Source of the DNA: Escherichia phage ECML-4
Sequence record: JX128257
Direction: 5' to 3' (one strand)
DNA length: 64,000 nt
The position numbers and the translations under genes are program-made. Below the pieces are notes generated by a model. It made no database searches. It was given only the letters and a program-made list of their open reading frames with translations, and had not been told where the DNA came from. Below, piece by piece: positions 8,948 to 16,245 of the stretch (within the stretch, counting starts at the first letter, position 1; every line of letters begins with the position of its first letter).

Positions 8948-9646
8948 ATGGCCAGACCATTTGAAAAATATTTCTACCATGAATCGTTGTTGAAATATAT
9001 CCATGTTTTCAACGCTATCATGTCGGATTTAAAAGTCAAAACCGAACGTGGCTTGATGGAAATCCCGCTGCATATGGCTATTGGTCGCCGTAATGACCTC
9101 AACAGGAACGTACCAGCCAATATGCTGCCATTTGCAACAATGTCCTTTGGTCAGTTCGAAATCAATAAACAGGTGACGAAGTCGTATCACAACCAAATAT
9201 CGACAGCCACGGCACGGTCCAAACAACGCATTCCGATCATTATAGATTTTGAATATAACATCAGAACGAAGAAACTGGTCGAAATGCTACAGGTGTTGGA
9301 ACAAATTTATTCTGTGTTCACTCCTTCCATTGATTGTCAGATAAAAGACAACGATACGTTATCTCAAGATCAAAACGTAAAGATCATGTTGACATCCCAT
9401 ACCATTTCCGATAACTGGGAAGGGGATGCCGCTGAATCACCCCATATAGATTGCACCTTTAATTTTCAATTACATGGACACATTTATGGCGAAGATTATT
9501 GGGTCGATGATGGCTCTGGCGGTGGTGATCCGAACGTTATCAAAGAGATAATTATTGAAATGTCTAATGATTTGAACATGCCATGGTCGGAACTTCCTGA
9601 GTGGTTCCGAGTTGATAAAGACGGCATACATCATCCGGAGGATTGA
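8948..9646 (+). CDS. 15: Tail sheath stabiliser / tail completion protein gp15
   Basis: Conserved position between gp14 and the terminase genes; tightly packed with neighbours. Confidence 0.6.
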   Translation: MARPFEKYFYHESLLKYIHVFNAIMSDLKVKTERGLMEIPLHMAIGRRNDLNRNVPANMLPFATMSFGQFEINKQVTKSYHNQISTATARSKQRIPIIIDFEYNIRTKKLVEMLQVLEQIYSVFTPSIDCQIKDNDTLSQDQNVKIMLTSHTISDNWEGDAAESPHIDCTFNFQLHGHIYGEDYWVDDGSGGGDPNVIKEIIIEMSNDLNMPWSELPEWFRVDKDGIHHPED

Positions 9647-9648
9647 TC

Positions 9649-10329
9649 ATGAGCAATATGTCAGAAAGGTTACTCGCTACGCTTGATGCGGTGACCGCCC
9701 GAGACGAAGTTGGGAAGGAGGCGATGGAGGCTGTCGCCCCTCGTCCAGGTATTGACTTCGATGAAAATACAGGTGAATGGTTTGGTGAACGTCCGGAAGG
9801 GTATCAGCCGATTCCTGAACCTCCATCATTGGAAGATATCGCGTCCAAAGAATCCAAGGTTCCGGAGTTTGCGGATACTGATGCCACAACAGATTACAAG
9901 CGGATACGCGATACAACATACGCCATGCAGGAAGCCACGATGTTCATGATGGGGCAAGCTGCTAAATTAGCTGCATCTACCGAAGCCCCAAGAGCGTTTT
10001 CCGTGTTTCGTGAATTGGGCGAACTCATGCGCGGCCTGAACAAAGACCTGATGGAAAACCAAAAAACCATCAAAGCTGTGACAGGGGATAAAGAACCGCC
10101 GACTGATGACACGACAGTGGATGTTACCACTTCACCCGACGGGACCACAACAGTATCTGTTGGGAAAAAGGCGAGATCTTCGCGCGATTTATTGAAGACG
10201 ATCGAAGATGCACGCCGCCGCGCTGAAGAAAGAGCACAAGCAAAGGCCGCACAACAACCAGAAGATGAAATCATTGATGGTGAAACAGTTGACGTGAAGG
10301 AAGAAGACGATGGCGTATCAGAAGCGTGA
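9649..10329 (+). CDS. 16: Terminase small subunit gp16
   Basis: GGAGG site 8 nt upstream of ATG; central region (EAPRAFSVFRELGELMRGLNKDLMENQKTIK) resembles T4 gp16 ([30 protein letters not shown]); directly upstream of the large subunit. Confidence 0.65.
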   Translation: MSNMSERLLATLDAVTARDEVGKEAMEAVAPRPGIDFDENTGEWFGERPEGYQPIPEPPSLEDIASKESKVPEFADTDATTDYKRIRDTTYAMQEATMFMMGQAAKLAASTEAPRAFSVFRELGELMRGLNKDLMENQKTIKAVTGDKEPPTDDTTVDVTTSPDGTTTVSVGKKARSSRDLLKTIEDARRRAEERAQAKAAQQPEDEIIDGETVDVKEEDDGVSEA

Positions 10330-12520
10330 TATAGAATATGCCCCAATTAAAACGGGGTTCAAAATAGACGATGTGAAATTGCGTATGGACCAAACGTTCA
10401 TGCGCAAACCTTCTGTGCGTGCTCCTCGAGTCGAGTTAATGCTGACAGATGAACAAGAAGACGAATTCGTTGAATGTTCTATGGATGCACACTACTTCGC
10501 CGCCAACTATTACAAGATAACCACGATCGATAAAGGCTTTATCCTTTTCGATATGCATGATTATCAGAAACAATTGTTCCATGACTTTCAGGACTATCGA
10601 TTCAATGCGGTCGTCCAGGCTCGTCAGTCCGGTAAATGCGTCCGTGGTGATACTCTTGTTTATGTCTATGATACAATCAGTCAACAAGAGTTGCATCTCA
10701 CCATAGAAGAGCTTCACAAGCGCTTCGAAGGACCGAACCATGCTGTGCCACTGAATACCATTGGCAACCACAATAAGTTTGTAGACAGCCGTTTCGGGAA
10801 ACGATATTTTGTTGAGTCCGACACTGGCTGGGTTCCGGTTATTGCCGCTCATAAAACGAAAGAATACGCTGAATACGTGGTCAGGACTGAAACCGGACGC
10901 ACAATTCATGTCGCAGATGAGCACATGTTCTTCAATGAATATGGGCGCGAAGTATTTGCTAAAGACATGGAGGCTGGAGATGCCATAATGACCCAGGAGG
11001 GAATAGAATTCATCTCTGAGATCTGGGAGACTGGTGAGTACCACCACATGTATGACTTGCAAGTCAAGTCCAGCGATCAACGTTATTACACGAATGGGTT
11101 CCTCAGCCATAATACCACGGTCGTGGCTGCGTTTCTTCTTTGGTATGCGATGTTCCACTCAGACAAAGAAATCGCGGTACTGGCAAACAAAGAGAAACAA
11201 GCGATTGAAATTCTTGACCGTATCAGGAAGGCGTATCAGGACCTCCCATTCTTCCTTCAGCAGGGTTGTGAGAAGTTTGGTTCTACACTGATAGAGTTTG
11301 AGAACGGCTCTAAGATATATGCTTATGCAACGTCTTCGGACTCTATTCGTGGTCGTTCTGTATCTCTCTTGTACGTGGACGAAGTCGCATTCATCGAAAA
11401 TGACTTTGAATTTTGGGAATCAACATTCCCAGCGATCGCATCTGCTGATACTTCACGTTGTATTCTGACCAGTACTCCGAAAGGCCAGCGAGGGTTGTTC
11501 TATGATATCGTCACCAAAGCAGACCCGCGCCATCCGCAATACAACGACTTCCATCTTACCGAAGTCCCTTGGTACAAGGTTCCGGCGTACACCAAAGACC
11601 CTGATTGGGAAACCAAACAACGCGCTCGTCTGGGGGATGCCCGTTTTGACCAGGAATTTGGAATCAAGTTCCGTGGTTCTGTAGGTTCATTGATACCAGC
11701 CAAATGCTTGGATAAAATGACATCCAAGTTATATCGAGAGCCTAATGAGTTCACCAAAATTTACAAGGAATATGACCCGCAACGCATCTACTTCGGGATC
11801 GCAGATACGGGGAAAGGTGTTGAAGGAGATTATTCGGTTCTGACAATTCTGGATATAACGGAATACCCGCATGTCATAGCGGCCAAGTACAGGAACAATA
11901 CAATACCTCCGATGATGTATGCATACACGATAGCTGATATGTGTACTGAATACGGGGAGTGTCCAGTCCTTGTAGAAACCAACAACGACGTTGGTGGACA
12001 GGTTATTACAATCTTGTATCAAGAAATTGAGTATCCAGAGATTATATTCACGTCGACGGATAACAAAGGGACAGGGAAACGGATTGGTGGTCGTAAACCA
12101 GAGCCAGGCATTAACACCAACAGGAAAGTGCGATCTATTGGTTGTGCTAACCTGAAAGCGCTTATTGAGAAAGAAATGTTGGTGATTGAAGATCAAGACA
12201 CGATAGATGAACTCAGCACATTCGTGTTCCGTGGTGCGCGTTATGAAGCAGATGATGGATGTCACGACGACTGCGTTATGCCGTTGGTATTATATTCTTG
12301 GGCAGTTAAACAAGAATGGTTCAGTGATCTGACTTCTACCAGTATTTCTCAAGACATGAGAAATAGAATGTCTTCGACTGAGTCACAACAAGTATTCCCA
12401 TTTGGTGGTTTAGTCGTGGGAGACACTCCATCTGGAACTGAGCATCTCCCTGGGTTCGGTGGTGTTCAAGTCTTCGACGAACGTTCAGGGATGACAATGG
12501 ACGAGTGGTTTAAGAATTGA
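10310..12520 (+). CDS. 17: Terminase large subunit gp17, interrupted by an in-frame mini-intein
   Basis: Walker A region QARQSGK/TTVVAAF flanks the insertion; downstream LLYVDEVAFI (Walker B-like) and nuclease region align with T4 gp17. Confidence 0.85.
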   Translation: MAYQKRDIEYAPIKTGFKIDDVKLRMDQTFMRKPSVRAPRVELMLTDEQEDEFVECSMDAHYFAANYYKITTIDKGFILFDMHDYQKQLFHDFQDYRFNAVVQARQSGKCVRGDTLVYVYDTISQQELHLTIEELHKRFEGPNHAVPLNTIGNHNKFVDSRFGKRYFVESDTGWVPVIAAHKTKEYAEYVVRTETGRTIHVADEHMFFNEYGREVFAKDMEAGDAIMTQEGIEFISEIWETGEYHHMYDLQVKSSDQRYYTNGFLSHNTTVVAAFLLWYAMFHSDKEIAVLANKEKQAIEILDRIRKAYQDLPFFLQQGCEKFGSTLIEFENGSKIYAYATSSDSIRGRSVSLLYVDEVAFIENDFEFWESTFPAIASADTSRCILTSTPKGQRGLFYDIVTKADPRHPQYNDFHLTEVPWYKVPAYTKDPDWETKQRARLGDARFDQEFGIKFRGSVGSLIPAKCLDKMTSKLYREPNEFTKIYKEYDPQRIYFGIADTGKGVEGDYSVLTILDITEYPHVIAAKYRNNTIPPMMYAYTIADMCTEYGECPVLVETNNDVGGQVITILYQEIEYPEIIFTSTDNKGTGKRIGGRKPEPGINTNRKVRSIGCANLKALIEKEMLVIEDQDTIDELSTFVFRGARYEADDGCHDDCVMPLVLYSWAVKQEWFSDLTSTSISQDMRNRMSSTESQQVFPFGGLVVGDTPSGTEHLPGFGGVQVFDERSGMTMDEWFKN
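10637..11113 (+). mobile_element. Mini-intein (159 aa, Hint domain only) inside the terminase P-loop
   Basis: Begins with Cys (CVRGDTLV, block A), ends YDLQVKSSDQRYYTNGFLSHN (blocks F/G) with Thr at +1; host protein reads QARQSGK-TTVVAAF once removed. No endonuclease domain visible. Confidence 0.75.
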
Positions 12521-12530: not shown

Positions 12531-12572
12531 TCTTTCAAATTGAGCGAAACTCTACCGAGAAGGAATAACATT

Positions 12573-14468
12573 ATGGCAACTCAAAGCTTCAGCGTTGCGC
12601 CGTCCGTACAGTGGACTGAGCGTGATGCCACGCTTCAGACTTCTCCGTCCGTGGTTGTTCAGGGCGCGACAGTCGGCAAATTTCAATGGGGTGAAGTCGA
12701 ACTCCCAGTGCTGGTGACTGGTGGTGAGACGGGTTTGGTGAAGAAATTCTTCAAACCTAATGACAGCACTGCGACAGATTTCCTTGTGATTGCAGACTTT
12801 TTGTCTTACAGCTCTATGGCATGGGTCACTCGTGTTGTTGGTCCTCTGGCCAAGAACTCTGTCACCAAAGGCCAGACAGCCATCACGATCAAAAACAAGC
12901 TGGATTTTGAAACAGCAAGTCCGTCAGCGTCTATCACTTGGGCTGGTCGTTATCCAGGATCTCTGGGGAATGACATCGCCATCAATGTTTGTGACTCCGC
13001 TGGATTCCCGACATGGGAATTCCGTAACAACTTTGCGTACGCACCTCAGTCTGGTGAATTCCATGTTGTGGTTGTAGACAAAGTTGGGCGCATTACTGAC
13101 TCTGCAGGCGCAGTCGGTCAGGTTGACCGTATATCTGTTTCTGGCACGGCAACTGCAGCTGGCACCATCAGTGTGGCAGGTGAAGATATCGCATATCTGG
13201 ATACTGATACTCCGGCCACTTTGGCGACCAAAATTGGCGCGGCGCTGACGGCGCTAACAGATGTTTATTCTTCTGTCGTTGTTAAGTCTAACACTGTCAT
13301 CGTGACCCATAAAGCTATTGGTCCCCAGACAGTTACTGCTATTGTTCCAGATGATAAGGGGCTGACTGCAACCGCCGTGATTACCACTGTTGGTGCATCT
13401 GGTTCTATTATCGAAAAATACGAACTCATGCAGAACACACAGGGTTCCAAAAAGTCCGATGGCGCGAATGCGTACTTCAAAGATGTCATCAATGATACAT
13501 CAAATTGGGTGTACACCTTCGCTACCGCTCTGGCCGCAGATGTTGTTGAATTAGAAGGCGGCGTAGACGACTACAATATCAACCGTGTCGCGGCTATCCA
13601 AGTTCTGAACAATGCCGAAGCATATGATGCGAAGCCAGTATTTGCATACTGTGAAGAGTTGATTGAACAACAGGCATTAATCGACTTGTCTACCGAGCGA
13701 AAAGACACCGTTTCCTTCGTGTCGCCTTTGCGTGATACCGTGGTCGGCAACCGTGGCCGTGAGATGGACGATGTGGTCGCTTGGCGTGAAAGTCTGGTGC
13801 GCGACTCCTCCTATTTCTTCATGGACGACAACTGGGCATACGTGTACGATAAATACAACGATAAGATGCGCTGGATCCCTGCTTGCGGCGGTACAGCGGG
13901 TGTTTGGGCACGTAGTATTGAAATCGCGGGTATCTACAAATCTCCTGCGTTCCACAACCGTGGCAAATACAACAACTACAATCGAATGGCGTGGTCTGCG
14001 TCTTCCGATGAACGTGCCGTGTTGTACCGCAACCAGATTAACAGCATCGTGACCTTCTCCAATGAAGGTATCGTGTTGTATGGTGACAAAACTGGTCTGA
14101 CACGTCCGTCTGCTTTCGATCGTATCAATGTTCGCGGTCTGTTTATTATGGCAGAACAGAACATCGCTGCAATCGCCAAATATTACCTTGGTGAGAACAA
14201 TGATGCGTTCACTCGCAGTCTGTTCAGCAACGCTGTTCGTCCTTATATTCGCCAGCTGGCAAATATGGGCGCGATCTACGATGGTAAAGTCAAGTGTGAC
14301 GAAGATAACAACACTGCTGACGTTATTGCGGCAAACCAGATGGTCGCTGGTATCTGGCTGAAACCGGAATACAGCATTAATTGGATCTACTTGGATTTTG
14401 CTGCCGTTCGACCGGACATGGAGTTCAGCGAGATCGAGTCCGGCGGCGGTATCGTCGCGGCGTCCTAA
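12573..14468 (+). CDS. 18: Tail sheath protein gp18
   Basis: N-terminal GATVGKFQWG matches T4 gp18 (AALAGKFQWG); C-terminal block (GDKTGLTRPSAFDRINVRGLF) matches T4 (GDKTATSVPSPFDRINVRRLF); ATG with AGAAGGAA site. Confidence 0.85.
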   Translation: MATQSFSVAPSVQWTERDATLQTSPSVVVQGATVGKFQWGEVELPVLVTGGETGLVKKFFKPNDSTATDFLVIADFLSYSSMAWVTRVVGPLAKNSVTKGQTAITIKNKLDFETASPSASITWAGRYPGSLGNDIAINVCDSAGFPTWEFRNNFAYAPQSGEFHVVVVDKVGRITDSAGAVGQVDRISVSGTATAAGTISVAGEDIAYLDTDTPATLATKIGAALTALTDVYSSVVVKSNTVIVTHKAIGPQTVTAIVPDDKGLTATAVITTVGASGSIIEKYELMQNTQGSKKSDGANAYFKDVINDTSNWVYTFATALAADVVELEGGVDDYNINRVAAIQVLNNAEAYDAKPVFAYCEELIEQQALIDLSTERKDTVSFVSPLRDTVVGNRGREMDDVVAWRESLVRDSSYFFMDDNWAYVYDKYNDKMRWIPACGGTAGVWARSIEIAGIYKSPAFHNRGKYNNYNRMAWSASSDERAVLYRNQINSIVTFSNEGIVLYGDKTGLTRPSAFDRINVRGLFIMAEQNIAAIAKYYLGENNDAFTRSLFSNAVRPYIRQLANMGAIYDGKVKCDEDNNTADVIAANQMVAGIWLKPEYSINWIYLDFAAVRPDMEFSEIESGGGIVAAS

Positions 14469-14503: not shown

Positions 14504-15226
14504 ATGATCTTTATAATAGAGAACATCGAAATGATCGGAAGTGTCTACAAAATCACAAATCTCACCAACCAGAAAGCCTATATCGGGATCACCACACGCG
14601 ACCCAATAGACAGGTGGTGGGAGCATTGCAACAACGCTCAGAACGGCTCTGATTACTTCATTCACCAGGCCATCCGTAAATACGGCGAAGAATCATTCTC
14701 GGTTCAGGTAATCGCGCAGACCAATTCTATAGAAGACCTCAAAGAATTAGAGATCATCTTGATAAAACAGCACGGCACTCATATGTCTACACAGAAAGGT
14801 TATAACAAGACTTGGGGTGGTGACGGCGCAACTTCTTCAGGGAAAGCGGGGGCAATAGACGTTAATACTGGTGAACGTTTAGGACTAATAGATTGTTCAG
14901 ATCCTCGTTGGGATATGGGGGAGATTATTAGTTGCAGACATGGAGTCAAACATAAAGATAATACCAGGTTGTCCAACTATGCCAAAACTCGGACTGGCGT
15001 TAAGAACCCCAATGCCAAGAAGTTCAAACTGATTTCACCATCCGGTGAAGAACATGAGATACATGGGAATTGCAAAGAATATGTGGAAAGCCTTGGGTTG
15101 AAATATTCAGCTCTTTATGATTATATTGAGAAAGACATCCCTGTTCCTCCGCCTTCTATATTTCATAAGAAGAATGCTTCACAAGAACGATTGAACACTG
15201 TTGGGTGGAGACTCGAAAGAATATGA
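14504..15226 (+). CDS. GIY-YIG homing endonuclease (free-standing, Seg-like)
   Basis: N-terminal VYKITNLTNQKAYIGIT (GIY-YIG) plus downstream R and E/N positions; GGAGGG site upstream; inserted between the conserved sheath and tube genes. Confidence 0.75.
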   Translation: MIFIIENIEMIGSVYKITNLTNQKAYIGITTRDPIDRWWEHCNNAQNGSDYFIHQAIRKYGEESFSVQVIAQTNSIEDLKELEIILIKQHGTHMSTQKGYNKTWGGDGATSSGKAGAIDVNTGERLGLIDCSDPRWDMGEIISCRHGVKHKDNTRLSNYAKTRTGVKNPNAKKFKLISPSGEEHEIHGNCKEYVESLGLKYSALYDYIEKDIPVPPPSIFHKKNASQERLNTVGWRLERI

Positions 15227-15681
15227 TATACGCATACAAAATTGAAATGGTTTGTAATGGAAAGGTCTACATCGGTGTGACCAATCACCCACAACGAAGA
15301 TATGATCAGCATTTTGCGAATGCCTTTCATCATGGAGTCCAAAGTGAATTGTATGACGCCATGCGTAAGTATGGAACATCTGGATTTACTTTCGTTGTAA
15401 TTGCTCAGACCGATGAAGTCCATAAATGGGAATTAGAGAAGCAACTCATCGCTCAATATAATTCTTATGAGATGGGTTACAACATGAATAAAGGCGGTAA
15501 TGATGGAAGTCATATGCTGGGTAAAACTGCAGCAAAATTGACATCCACAGGTGAACACATTGGTCTTGTTTCTCTCATAGATCCCCGTTGGGAATTGTGT
15601 GAAATCGAACCTGTTTCAAGTAATGTTCATCATGGTTTCGATCTTTCTTCTATGAAGATTAAAAGATTGACGACTAATTAG
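15223..15681 (+). CDS. Second GIY-YIG homing endonuclease paralogue, shorter (about 152 aa)
   Basis: IYAYKIEMVCNGKVYIGVT motif; shares a DPRW(D/E) block with the upstream copy; start overlaps the upstream stop (ATGA). Confidence 0.6.
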   Translation: MIYAYKIEMVCNGKVYIGVTNHPQRRYDQHFANAFHHGVQSELYDAMRKYGTSGFTFVVIAQTDEVHKWELEKQLIAQYNSYEMGYNMNKGGNDGSHMLGKTAAKLTSTGEHIGLVSLIDPRWELCEIEPVSSNVHHGFDLSSMKIKRLTTN

Positions 15682-15711: not shown

Positions 15712-16245
15712 ATGGCGACAGTCAATGAGTTTCGCGCAGCCATGTCACGAGGGGGCGGCGTACAACGCCAACACCGCTGGCGTGTGACTGTAAACTTTCC
15801 TTCTTTTGTTGCTGGTTCCGACACAATTCGCGACGTGTCCTTGCTGGCTGTAACTACCAACACCCCGACAGGTCAGCTGGGTGAAATTCTGGTGCCCTGG
15901 GGTGGTCGTGAACTTCCATTCCCAGGCGACCGTCGTTTCGAAGCACTGCCTGTAACATTCATTAACGTTGTGAACAACGCGCCGTACAACGCATTTGAAG
16001 TGTGGCAGCAATTCATCAATGGTAGTGAAAACAACCGTGCCAGCGCGAATCCAGATGATTATTTCCGTGATATCATCATGGAGCTTCTGGATGCGAATGA
16101 CAATGTCACCAAGACATGGACTTTGCAGGGTGGCTGGCCTCAAAACCTCGGCCAATTGGAACTCGATATGTCTGCGATGGACTCTTATACACAGTTCACC
16201 GTCGATCTGCGTTATTTCCAAGCCGTGTCAGACAAATCTTTATAA
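15712..16245 (+). CDS. 19: Tail tube protein gp19
   Basis: C-terminus GGWPQNLGQLELDMSAMDSYTQFTVDLRYFQ matches T4 gp19 (GLWPTNVGELQLDWDSNNEIQTFEVTLALDYWE). Confidence 0.85.
   Translation: MATVNEFRAAMSRGGGVQRQHRWRVTVNFPSFVAGSDTIRDVSLLAVTTNTPTGQLGEILVPWGGRELPFPGDRRFEALPVTFINVVNNAPYNAFEVWQQFINGSENNRASANPDDYFRDIIMELLDANDNVTKTWTLQGGWPQNLGQLELDMSAMDSYTQFTVDLRYFQAVSDKSL

Follow-up and report, generated by a model that had tools for sequence, protein, structure and literature searches.

Why should the large terminase gene of a phage carry 159 additional codons in the very loop that binds ATP, and what becomes of them in the mature protein? The question is raised by Escherichia phage ECML-4 (sequence record JX128257), of which we analyzed a stretch of 64,000 nucleotides, called the window here, that belongs to a Kuttervirus phage of the Ackermannviridae. 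The gene occupies 10310..12520 on the plus strand (stop codon included), a single uninterrupted frame of 736 aa that the list of open reading frames and Pfam together identify as the 84.7 kDa precursor of a T4 gp17-type large terminase subunit (TerL). Terminase_6N (PF03237) matches it with 60.2 bits (cut-off 22), and Terminase_6C (PF17289) with 20.0 bits, slightly below its cut-off of 22.6. Furthermore, when the insert is removed by computation, phmmer aligns residues 28-516 of the product with the T4 gp17 structures 3ezk and 3cpe (E = 4.6e-76 and 8.1e-75), and it also finds the RB49 nuclease domain 3c6a (E = 9.1e-27). Judged by these similarities, the host gene encodes a T4-type TerL with predicted P-loop ATPase and RNase H-like nuclease domains homologous to those of T4 gp17. 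Its DNA is 100% identical to that of the Salmonella phages FSL SP-063, FSL SP-029 and Guerrero, and the gene order gp15-TerS-TerL-sheath is conserved.

The answer that we reach with high confidence is that positions 10637-11113 encode a cis-splicing class 1 mini-intein, lacking a homing endonuclease, that sits between Lys109 and the Walker A Thr of this Kuttervirus terminase. The anatomy is precise. Alignment to the SRQLGK of T4 gp17 places the N-extein at 10310..10636 on the plus strand (residues 1-109, 13.1 kDa), and it ends with the first part of the Walker A motif, A104-R-Q-S-G-K109 (10619-10636), whose RQxGK pattern is shared by over 70 relatives. Then follow, on the same strand, the insert at 10637..11113, whose identity as a class 1 mini-intein made of a Hint domain only (Cys1-Asn159, 159 aa, 18.6 kDa) draws on family models, fold, the indel in relatives and GenBank, and the C-extein at 11114..12517 (468 aa, 53.1 kDa), delimited by alignment to T4 gp17 and by the junction codons. 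These codons are TGC (Cys, 10637-10639), AAT (Asn, 11111-11113) and ACC (Thr +1, 11114-11116), and the last of them, the first of the C-extein, doubles as the +1 nucleophile and as the Thr of the Walker A GK(T). The motif is thus split as ARQSGK/T (a slash marks the insertion point here and below) by 477 nt that are in frame and without a stop, equivalent to TerL residues Cys110-Asn268. The original prediction had described a continuous terminase frame with 159 codons interrupting the P-loop, and this was exact to the residue (110-268 of 736); the strings that it quoted, CVRGDTLV, YDL and NGFLSHN with Thr at +1, are all present. The product length of 577 aa that it gave is also what we compute for spliced TerL (66.2 kDa), with the ligated junction FNAVVQARQSGK / TTVVAAFLLWYA and QSGK-TTVVAAFLLWYAMFHSDK as the predicted junction-spanning peptide, and once the insert is deleted ARQSGK/TTVVA aligns without a gap to SRQLGKTTVVA of T4.

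Intein family models recognize the insert to different degrees. TIGR01445 (intein_Nterm, NCBIfam) scores 25.4 bits, above its cut-off of 24.5, while TIGR01443 (intein_Cterm) matches weakly, with 11.9-13.4 bits against a cut-off of 15.6. The check that had been proposed, a search with two Pfam Hint models, came out in part: PF14890 (Intein_splicing) matches with E = 3.5e-8 but at 33.9 bits, slightly below the Pfam gathering threshold of 35.8, and PF07591 (PT-HINT) gave no match on the insert. Among PDB sequences phmmer pairs the insert with the gp41-1 intein (E = 7.9e-4), and also with the PabCDC21-1 intein (6rpp), a consensus engineered intein and VidaL. AlphaFold run on the insert sequence alone was unusable (pLDDT 36.4), and the model was built from a 24-sequence alignment, reaching a pLDDT of 95.6 and a pTM of 0.88; in this model the insert has the horseshoe-like beta architecture of the Hint fold over its whole length, and the variable segment that links block A to block B includes two short helices, at residues 23-29 and 36-43. 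Foldseek against the PDB returns inteins at all of ranks 1-41, led by VidaL (E = 6.1e-11) and followed by Mtu RecA, PhoCDC21-1, NpuDnaB, gp41-1, Ssp DnaB, Pho RadA and Mxe GyrA. The solved mini-inteins VidaL (6vgv), gp41-1 (6qaz), Npu DnaB (4o1r), the Mtu RecA splicing domain (3ifj) and Pho/Pab CDC21-1 (6rpq, 6rpp) share this fold with the window intein at query-normalized TM-scores of 0.64-0.78 and a Foldseek probability of 1.00, with weak but significant sequence similarity from blocks B to G; they reside in other host proteins and are only 15-22% identical to it. A bacterial intein-like (BIL) or Hedgehog Hint domain was considered and rejected, since the fold search places BIL2 and Hedgehog structures no higher than rank 42, under all inteins, and since the insert lies in a Walker A motif with His-Asn/Thr at its end.

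The original prediction that no homing-endonuclease domain is present also holds: the insert, at 159 aa, falls within the size range of a mini-intein (about 130-200 aa), the model is all Hint, and Pfam on the insert gives Intein_splicing and nothing else. The 36 residues that separate block B from block F are Hint-fold beta strands in the model and contain no LAGLIDADG, HNH or GIY-YIG domain. A search of the window with a profile derived from this intein family revealed no second member.

The splicing signature that had been predicted is borne out by the residues themselves, whose conservation we scored in the 24-sequence intein alignment, with relatives down to 30% identity. Block A, CVRGDTLVYVYDT (10637..10675, plus strand, as are the others), begins with Cys1, the first nucleophile (10637-10639), and Val2 and Thr6 of this block reach 90% conservation or more. 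Block B, GRTIHVADEHMFF (10895..10933), has invariant A93, D94 and H96; block F, HHMYDLQVKSS (11042..11074), invariant M138 and D140; and block G, YYTNGFLSHN (11084..11113), invariant T152, L156, S157, the penultimate H158 and the terminal N159. The residues expected to act in splicing, namely Cys1, His96, Asp140, His158 and Asn159, are all invariant, as is Thr+1. After the intein, TT[VI]V follows in every intein-bearing relative with a located C-terminal junction (26/33), and in the closest intein-less relatives it stands directly after GK. The motif of block B is ADxH, not TxxH, in every relative examined, Ala93 replacing the usual Thr. That Thr is frequent among inteins and not defining, and the solved gp41-1 intein aligns a Ser (CSEEH) at the same position, which indicates that the residue varies among working inteins. 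The intein, with a pN of 0.09-0.15 against a pS of 0.77-0.82, is on these estimates under purifying selection.

Natural empty sites add evidence of another kind. Relatives were reached with the full precursor as query, as an intein-only homologue search gave just two proteins. The insert, at a constant length of 159 codons, is carried by about 280 records of isolated phages, and among the records listed the insert-bearing TerL is the sole TerL match per phage. In the intein-less relatives P0015-P0019, whose identity across the aligned part is 74-85%, the site reads RQSGKTTVVAAFLLW, and the empty-site sequence around the insertion point is CGTCAGTCCGGTAAG/ACGACTGTGGTGGC; one of them has a syntenic gp13-gp14-gp15-TerS-TerL-sheath locus. 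The Erwinia phages Bue1 and phiEa2809 and several metagenomic contigs are likewise without the insert. The comparison with insert-free relatives that the original prediction had proposed points the same way: three intein-less alleles align to the window DNA with one gap each, of exactly 477 nt and at the coordinates of the insert, which is not a chance pattern. Close to fixation among cultured Ackermannviridae, this endonuclease-free intein is missing there only from the two Erwinia phages.

We infer splicing itself from an essential host gene, from the presence of the insert in so many isolated phages and from the conserved catalytic residues, and the pathway would be the standard one for inteins. 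The 84.7-kDa precursor would be translated as a single chain, in which Cys1, with block B His96 assisting, would perform an N-to-S acyl shift at the Lys109-Cys1 bond; the hydroxyl of Thr+1 would attack the resulting thioester to form a branched ester intermediate; Asn159 would then be converted to a succinimide with help from His158 and block F Asp140, freeing the 18.6-kDa intein; and an O-to-N shift would leave a Lys109-Thr peptide bond in a 577-aa, 66.2-kDa TerL whose ARQSGKT P-loop is intact. As the intein in place splits the ATP-binding loop, the packaging ATPase should remain inactive until the intein has been spliced out. Thr is generally a weaker +1 nucleophile than Cys or Ser, so the reaction may be slow.

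Could the insert instead be something other than a splicing intein? One could picture a degenerate Hint-like insertion that no longer splices and stays behind as an additional domain of the mature terminase, and the two of three curated intein models that stay below threshold, together with the Thr to Ala change in block B, speak in that direction. We consider it very improbable, because the Walker A Lys and Thr that flank the insert are adjacent residues of the ATP loop in T4 gp17, because the invariance of all splicing residues over such large divergence is unexpected for a decayed element, and because the terminase is essential and its carriers are isolated, culturable phages. A 159-residue domain between the Walker A Lys and Thr is also incompatible with the P-loop of P-loop NTPases. 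Less credible by far, to the point of being negligible, is an interruption of a different nature (an antisense gene, an assembly artefact or an intron): a 240-aa antisense ORF at 10436..11158 does overlap the region, but an in-frame, stop-free insert of 159 codons in about 280 independent phage records with a confident Hint fold contradicts it, as does the exact 477-nt gap of the intein-less alleles, and the ORF was rejected as a gene because stop codons break it in Marshall, CBA120, Klebsiella phage 0507-KN2-1 and Serratia phage 3M.

A third alternative accepts the intein and gives it a task: redox state, temperature or TerS/portal assembly would modulate the rate of splicing or trigger it, and the intein would serve as a timer that keeps the ATPase and nuclease of the packaging motor switched off until infection is at a late stage; such a benefit would explain its retention in nearly all cultured members. 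Near-fixation although no endonuclease drives its spread, purifying selection on the intein and an insertion point that inactivates the P-loop until excision are all in keeping with this. However, a single Cys (Cys1) in the window intein makes an intramolecular disulfide trap impossible, the occurrence of relatives that lack the intein, both within the family and at syntenic loci, argues that the element is dispensable, and near-fixation is equally expected of a parasitic element whose imprecise loss is lethal. Conditional control is in our view improbable, and a mini-intein that simply splices in cis is the reading that we retain.

The alleles of this mini-intein have a history of their own. 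Compared with CBA120, the exteins of the window are 99% identical at the protein level and the inteins only 78.6%; the window intein is nearer (84.3%) to that of Klebsiella Taipeivirus phages than to CBA120's. Synonymous divergence from CBA120 is 0.095 for the N-extein and rises to 0.77 for the intein, and against Marshall the pattern is the opposite, falling from 0.49 to 0.01. By these comparisons the histories of intein and extein are incongruent. The switch from CBA120-like to Marshall-like sequence falls at 10621-10633, at most 16 nt from the splice junction, and the Marshall-like tract continues through the entire C-extein. Since it does so, and since the neighborhood is mosaic every 130-400 nt, the position of the breakpoint may be coincidence; the notion of the intein as a discrete recombination cassette was thus only half supported, with a sharp breakpoint at the N-terminal junction and none at the C-terminal. 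In SKML-39 and Dickeya phage Ds23CZ a 292-aa ORF lies directly upstream of TerL; in SKML-39 this ORF is annotated as a 'homing endonuclease' and its protein has a NUMOD3 motif. It is conceivable, if rather unlikely, that the mini-intein moves between Ackermannviridae genomes as a unit, through recombination in the Walker A flanks or through a homing endonuclease acting in trans ('collaborative homing'). As separate observations, free-standing homing endonuclease genes adjoin terminase and sheath genes in Ackermannviridae phages, and the Walker A flanks of the intein are ultra-conserved.

How new is this intein? As a discovery it had been anticipated, for annotations and publications on sister phages already describe the same intein at identical residues, and the finding is correct and ordinary. 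The GenBank record of phage Marshall (KF669653) notes an 'intein from Cys110 to Asn268' with mat_peptide features, and MH688040 annotates the residues of the window insert as an intein; the TerL inteins of the Salmonella phages Marshall and Maynard (KF669653, KF669654) and Mooltan (MH688040) and of Klebsiella phage Magnus (MN045230) agree with that of the window in gene, site and length. The genome announcements of Marshall, Mooltan and Magnus mention the intein, called from InterPro matches only, without a splicing experiment or a family-wide analysis (PMC3853055, PMC6486243, PMC6763660), and the word 'intein' is absent from the 25 best-ranked literature matches to Ackermannviridae keywords. 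The Marshall intein is 99.4% identical to the window intein at the protein level and the Magnus-type allele 84.3%; apart from an N-extein whose DNA is CBA120-like, not Marshall-like, the TerL gene of the window is essentially no different from those of the annotated phages. The additions made here are incremental: near-fixation in cultured Ackermannviridae, the natural empty sites of Bue1 and phiEa2809, the ADxH of every relative examined and the incongruence of intein and extein.

The site itself has a wider following. That the P-loop is a classic intein hotspot, as originally predicted, agrees with Kelley et al. (2016, mBio), who term the Lys/Thr insertion 'classic' and refer in their discussion to efficient splicing of TerL inteins (PMC5050341). 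The mycobacteriophage TerL1-a inteins share this P-loop insertion with the window intein in a host of the Terminase_1 family, as opposed to the T4-type Terminase_6 of the window, and the TerL6 inteins are in the C-motif, not the P-loop (PMC5050341). Within T4-type terminases, Vibrio phage VP-1, Salicola phage SCTP-2, the Campylobacter phages CP21 and vB_CcoM-IBB_35 (the last already reported; PMC3322345) and many metagenomic TerLs have inteins at the same Walker A site, with RQxGK/C...SHN/TT junctions, the ADxH block B and a MYDLQV...YTNGILSHN C-terminus as in the window; their identity to the window intein is 30-41% and their length 150-181 aa, and the segment that links block A to block B varies. 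Two metagenomic members of this same-site group have an extra insertion of about 290 aa. The larger members of the intein family measure 443-451 aa, and Pfam finds no homing endonuclease in them, the extra segment of about 290 aa appearing to be of low complexity. GIY-YIG matches in VP-1-like TerL proteins were rejected as an intein endonuclease, since they lie downstream of the ATPase domain and outside the intein.

For annotation, the predicted mature terminase of these phages is the 577-aa spliced product, on which most of their GenBank records are silent; one record labels the insert region 'pretoxin HINT domain protein'. The intein is a further example of the known preference of inteins for P-loop ATPases, and it implies that DNA packaging in Kuttervirus and its relatives, a phage group used in therapy, would depend on protein splicing.

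The frame at 10310..12520 (+), a single unbroken run of 736 codons in the ORF list, encodes a terminase large subunit (TerL) of the T4 type: in Pfam, Terminase_6N scores 60.2 bits (cut-off 22) and Terminase_6C 20.0 bits, slightly below its cut-off of 22.6, and the in-silico spliced protein matches the T4 gp17 chains 3ezk and 3cpe (E = 4.6e-76 and 8.1e-75, residues 28-516) and the RB49 nuclease domain 3c6a (E = 9.1e-27). The neighbouring genes run from neck proteins through sheath stabiliser and small terminase to TerL, then tail sheath, tail tube and portal, and the small-terminase ORF (9643-10329, +) shares 20 nt with the TerL ORF (10310-12520, +). The TerL DNA is 100% identical to the gene in Salmonella phages FSL SP-063, FSL SP-029 and Guerrero, and 98-99.9% identical to that of many other Kuttervirus phages (Ackermannviridae, Cvivirinae), with Salmonella and E. 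coli O157:H7 as hosts. Within this gene the raw sequence places a Cys codon (TGC) at 10637-10639, an Asn codon (AAT) at 11111-11113 and a Thr codon (ACC) at 11114-11116, all on the + strand; a script found CVRGDTLV...FLSHN at residues 110-268, which is 159 codons and leaves 577 residues after removal, and the splice junction reads FNAVVQARQSGK on one side and TTVVAAFLLWYA on the other. The coordinates, residue strings and arithmetic of the original prediction are thus all correct by ORF list, raw sequence and script. Spliced TerL (vvqARQSGKTTVVAafllw) matches T4 gp17 (nlSRQLGKTTVVAiflah) column for column over the junction, and because this alignment is free of gaps the insert must lie between the Walker A Lys and Thr, the Thr at +1 being that of the P-loop itself, so that the proposed insertion into the Walker A P-loop of TerL is borne out. 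In G+C content the insert (46.1%) does not stand apart from its exteins (44.9%) or from the whole window (45.3%). An antisense ORF overlapping it (10436-11158, -, 240 aa) is very probably no gene: it is not conserved, and stop codons break it in Marshall, CBA120, Klebsiella phage 0507-KN2-1 and Serratia phage 3M.

Several lines of evidence support the reading of 10637-11113 as an intein, with splicing predicted from sequence and model. The NCBIfam model of the intein N-terminal splicing region (TIGR01445) scores 25.4 bits, above its cut-off of 24.5, while the C-terminal model (TIGR01443) matches weakly (11.9-13.4 bits versus 15.6); of the two proposed Pfam models, PF14890 (Intein_splicing) matches with E = 3.5e-8 and 33.9 bits, slightly below its gathering score of 35.8, and PF07591 had no match to the insert in the Pfam search. 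A phmmer search of PDB sequences returned the gp41-1 intein (E = 7.9e-4), the PabCDC21-1 intein (6rpp), a consensus engineered intein and VidaL. We aligned the insert with 23 related inserts taken from TerL homologues (30-79% identity to it), and an AlphaFold model built with this alignment reached pLDDT 95.6 and pTM 0.88, versus a pLDDT of only 36.4 from the single sequence. When the insert model was compared with the PDB by Foldseek, ranks 1-41 were all inteins, led by VidaL (E = 6.1e-11) and followed by Mtu RecA, PhoCDC21-1, Npu DnaB, the Pho RadA branched intermediate, gp41-1, Ssp DnaB and Mxe GyrA, with BIL and Hedgehog Hint domains below all of them. The predicted splicing signature of Cys1, a terminal SHN and Thr at +1 was found in full: among the invariant alignment columns are Cys1, the block B residues Ala93-Asp94-x-His96, Asp140 of block F and the block G residues Ser157-His158-Asn159, and the next residue is always Thr in intein-bearing TerL relatives. 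The sole textbook departure is in the block B TxxH, which has Ala for Thr across the whole family, where the solved gp41-1 intein has Ser. The claim that no homing-endonuclease domain is present also stands, since the insert is only 159 aa long, Pfam found no domain in it besides Intein_splicing, and in the AlphaFold model the 36 residues from block B to block F form beta strands of the Hint fold; it is therefore a mini-intein.

The TerL intein is real but already known. The GenBank record of Salmonella phage Marshall (KF669653) annotates an 'intein from Cys110 to Asn268' and gives separate mat_peptide features to it and to the joined terminase, as does that of Mooltan (MH688040); Marshall and the window share 99.4% identity in the intein. 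On the strength of InterPro hits, the Marshall announcement describes its large terminase gene product with the words 'is interrupted by an intein' (PMC3853055), and the same is reported for Mooltan (PMC6486243) and Klebsiella phage Magnus (PMC6763660). Kelley et al. (2016, PMC5050341) call insertion between the Lys and Thr of the P-loop 'classic'. Other papers describe a TerL intein in Campylobacter phage IBB_35 (PMC3322345) and, from marine metagenomes, a gp17-like terminase with a split intein (PMC2677866). Most database records lack intein annotation and few have intein mat_peptide features, TerL being labelled inconsistently as 'hypothetical protein', 'terminase-like family protein' or, in one record, 'pretoxin HINT domain protein', and the word 'intein' is absent from the 25 best-ranked papers of a keyword search on Ackermannviridae terms. 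The original observation is thus confirmed and its interpretation supported, splicing remaining a prediction.

The insert is a standard class 1 intein, and its conserved residues suggest a pathway in which an N-to-S acyl shift at Cys1 would be followed by trans-esterification, with Thr+1 attacking the thioester, then by cyclisation of Asn159, aided by His158 and Asp140, to release the intein, and an O-to-N shift would re-form the Lys109-Thr bond; an 84.7-kDa precursor should yield a 66.2-kDa TerL and an 18.6-kDa intein. TerL is essential and its P-loop is split in the precursor, and therefore the ~280 insert-bearing records of isolated phages are indirect evidence of splicing. The intein has a single Cys, so a disulfide-based redox switch within it is not possible. 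Purifying selection acts on it, with pN 0.146 and pS 0.769 against CBA120, and 0.090 and 0.821 against Klebsiella phage 0507-KN2-1.

By tblastn the intein occurs in 319 phage records, 280 spanning at least 80% of the query, and carriers include Kuttervirus, Taipeivirus (Klebsiella), Limestonevirus (Dickeya), Agtrevirus (Shigella, SKML-39) and Miltonvirus (Serratia); since TerL at least 60% identical is present in ~282 phage records, the intein must be near fixation in the cultured Ackermannviridae. Versions 31-40% identical lie in annotated TerL of Salicola phage SCTP-2, Vibrio phage VP-1 and Campylobacter phages CP21 and IBB_35, and weak tblastn matches in Pseudomonas jumbo phages fall in regions annotated as other proteins. 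Among the 120 best TerL homologues in a large protein collection, 33 have RQxGK then Cys, marking an intein at the same point, and 54 have RQxGK directly followed by Thr, the closest of these reading RQSGKTTVVAAFLLW. Five intein-less homologues (P0015-P0019) share 74-85% identity with the TerL of the window where the two align, one of them on a 118-kb contig with the same order (gp13-gp14-gp15-TerS-TerL-sheath-tube-portal), and the site is also empty in the isolated Erwinia phages vB_EamM-Bue1 and phiEa2809; outside the family the closest intein-less TerLs are those of Vibrio phage D494 (56%) and Ralstonia phage RSP15 (43%). The proposed comparison with intein-less relatives came out as expected, DNA alignment with three empty alleles giving one gap of exactly 477 nt, window 10637-11113. 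Two metagenomic TerLs (P0082 and P0110, 983 and 1010 aa) have family members of 443 and 451 aa with an extra ~290-aa Ser/Arg/Gln/Lys-rich segment between blocks A and B, which is not the usual endonuclease position; Pfam found no domain in this segment, which may be read-through of another inserted element.

Two free-standing GIY-YIG homing endonuclease ORFs (14504-15226 and 15205-15681, both +; Pfam GIY-YIG 36.2 and 39.4 bits) stand in tandem between the tail sheath (12540-14468) and tail tube (15712-16245) genes; at this position Marshall has one GIY-YIG gene and vB_EcoM_3HA11 one plus a reverse-strand ORF. In Aglimvirinae a 292-aa ORF (409-1287 of both the Salmonella phage SKML-39 and the Dickeya phage Ds23CZ locus) lies directly 5' of the intein-bearing TerL and overlaps the beginning of that gene. 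The SKML-39 annotation calls this ORF 'homing endonuclease', the SKML-39 protein has a NUMOD3 motif (37.5 bits), and the ORF product could act on TerL alleles. The window has no counterpart of it directly upstream of TerL, and its 64,000 nt hold no second intein of this family. The VP-1-like TerLs (P0084, which is Vibrio phage VP-1, P0053 and P0111) carry a GIY-YIG domain at residues ~500-590, C-terminal to the ATPase domain, and no detectable Terminase_6C nuclease domain; besides the P-loop intein, it looks as if a homing endonuclease gene had either split this TerL gene or become fused to it.

The histories of intein and exteins disagree. Protein identity to CBA120 is 99.0% in the exteins and 78.6% in the intein, and to Klebsiella phage 0507-KN2-1 88.9% and 84.3%; synonymous divergence across N-extein, intein and C-extein is 0.095, 0.769 and 0.536 against CBA120, and 0.493, 0.010 and 0.016 against Marshall. 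The N-extein DNA is CBA120-like at 30 of 36 informative sites, these switch at 10621-10633, just 5' of the intein's first codon and at most 16 nt from the N-terminal splice junction, and from 10633 to the gene end the DNA resembles Marshall, which it matches at 146 of 148 informative sites up to 11250 and, in 60-nt windows as far as the last codon of TerL, at 97-100% nucleotide identity. That the breakpoint meets the splice junction may be chance coincidence, as the upstream genes (9040-10310) switch between CBA120-like and Marshall-like every 130-400 nt and the C-terminal junction has no matching breakpoint in the comparison with these two phages. On the pattern of informative sites, TerL itself is a mosaic of CBA120-like and Marshall-like DNA, which shows that intein alleles move between lineages by recombination.
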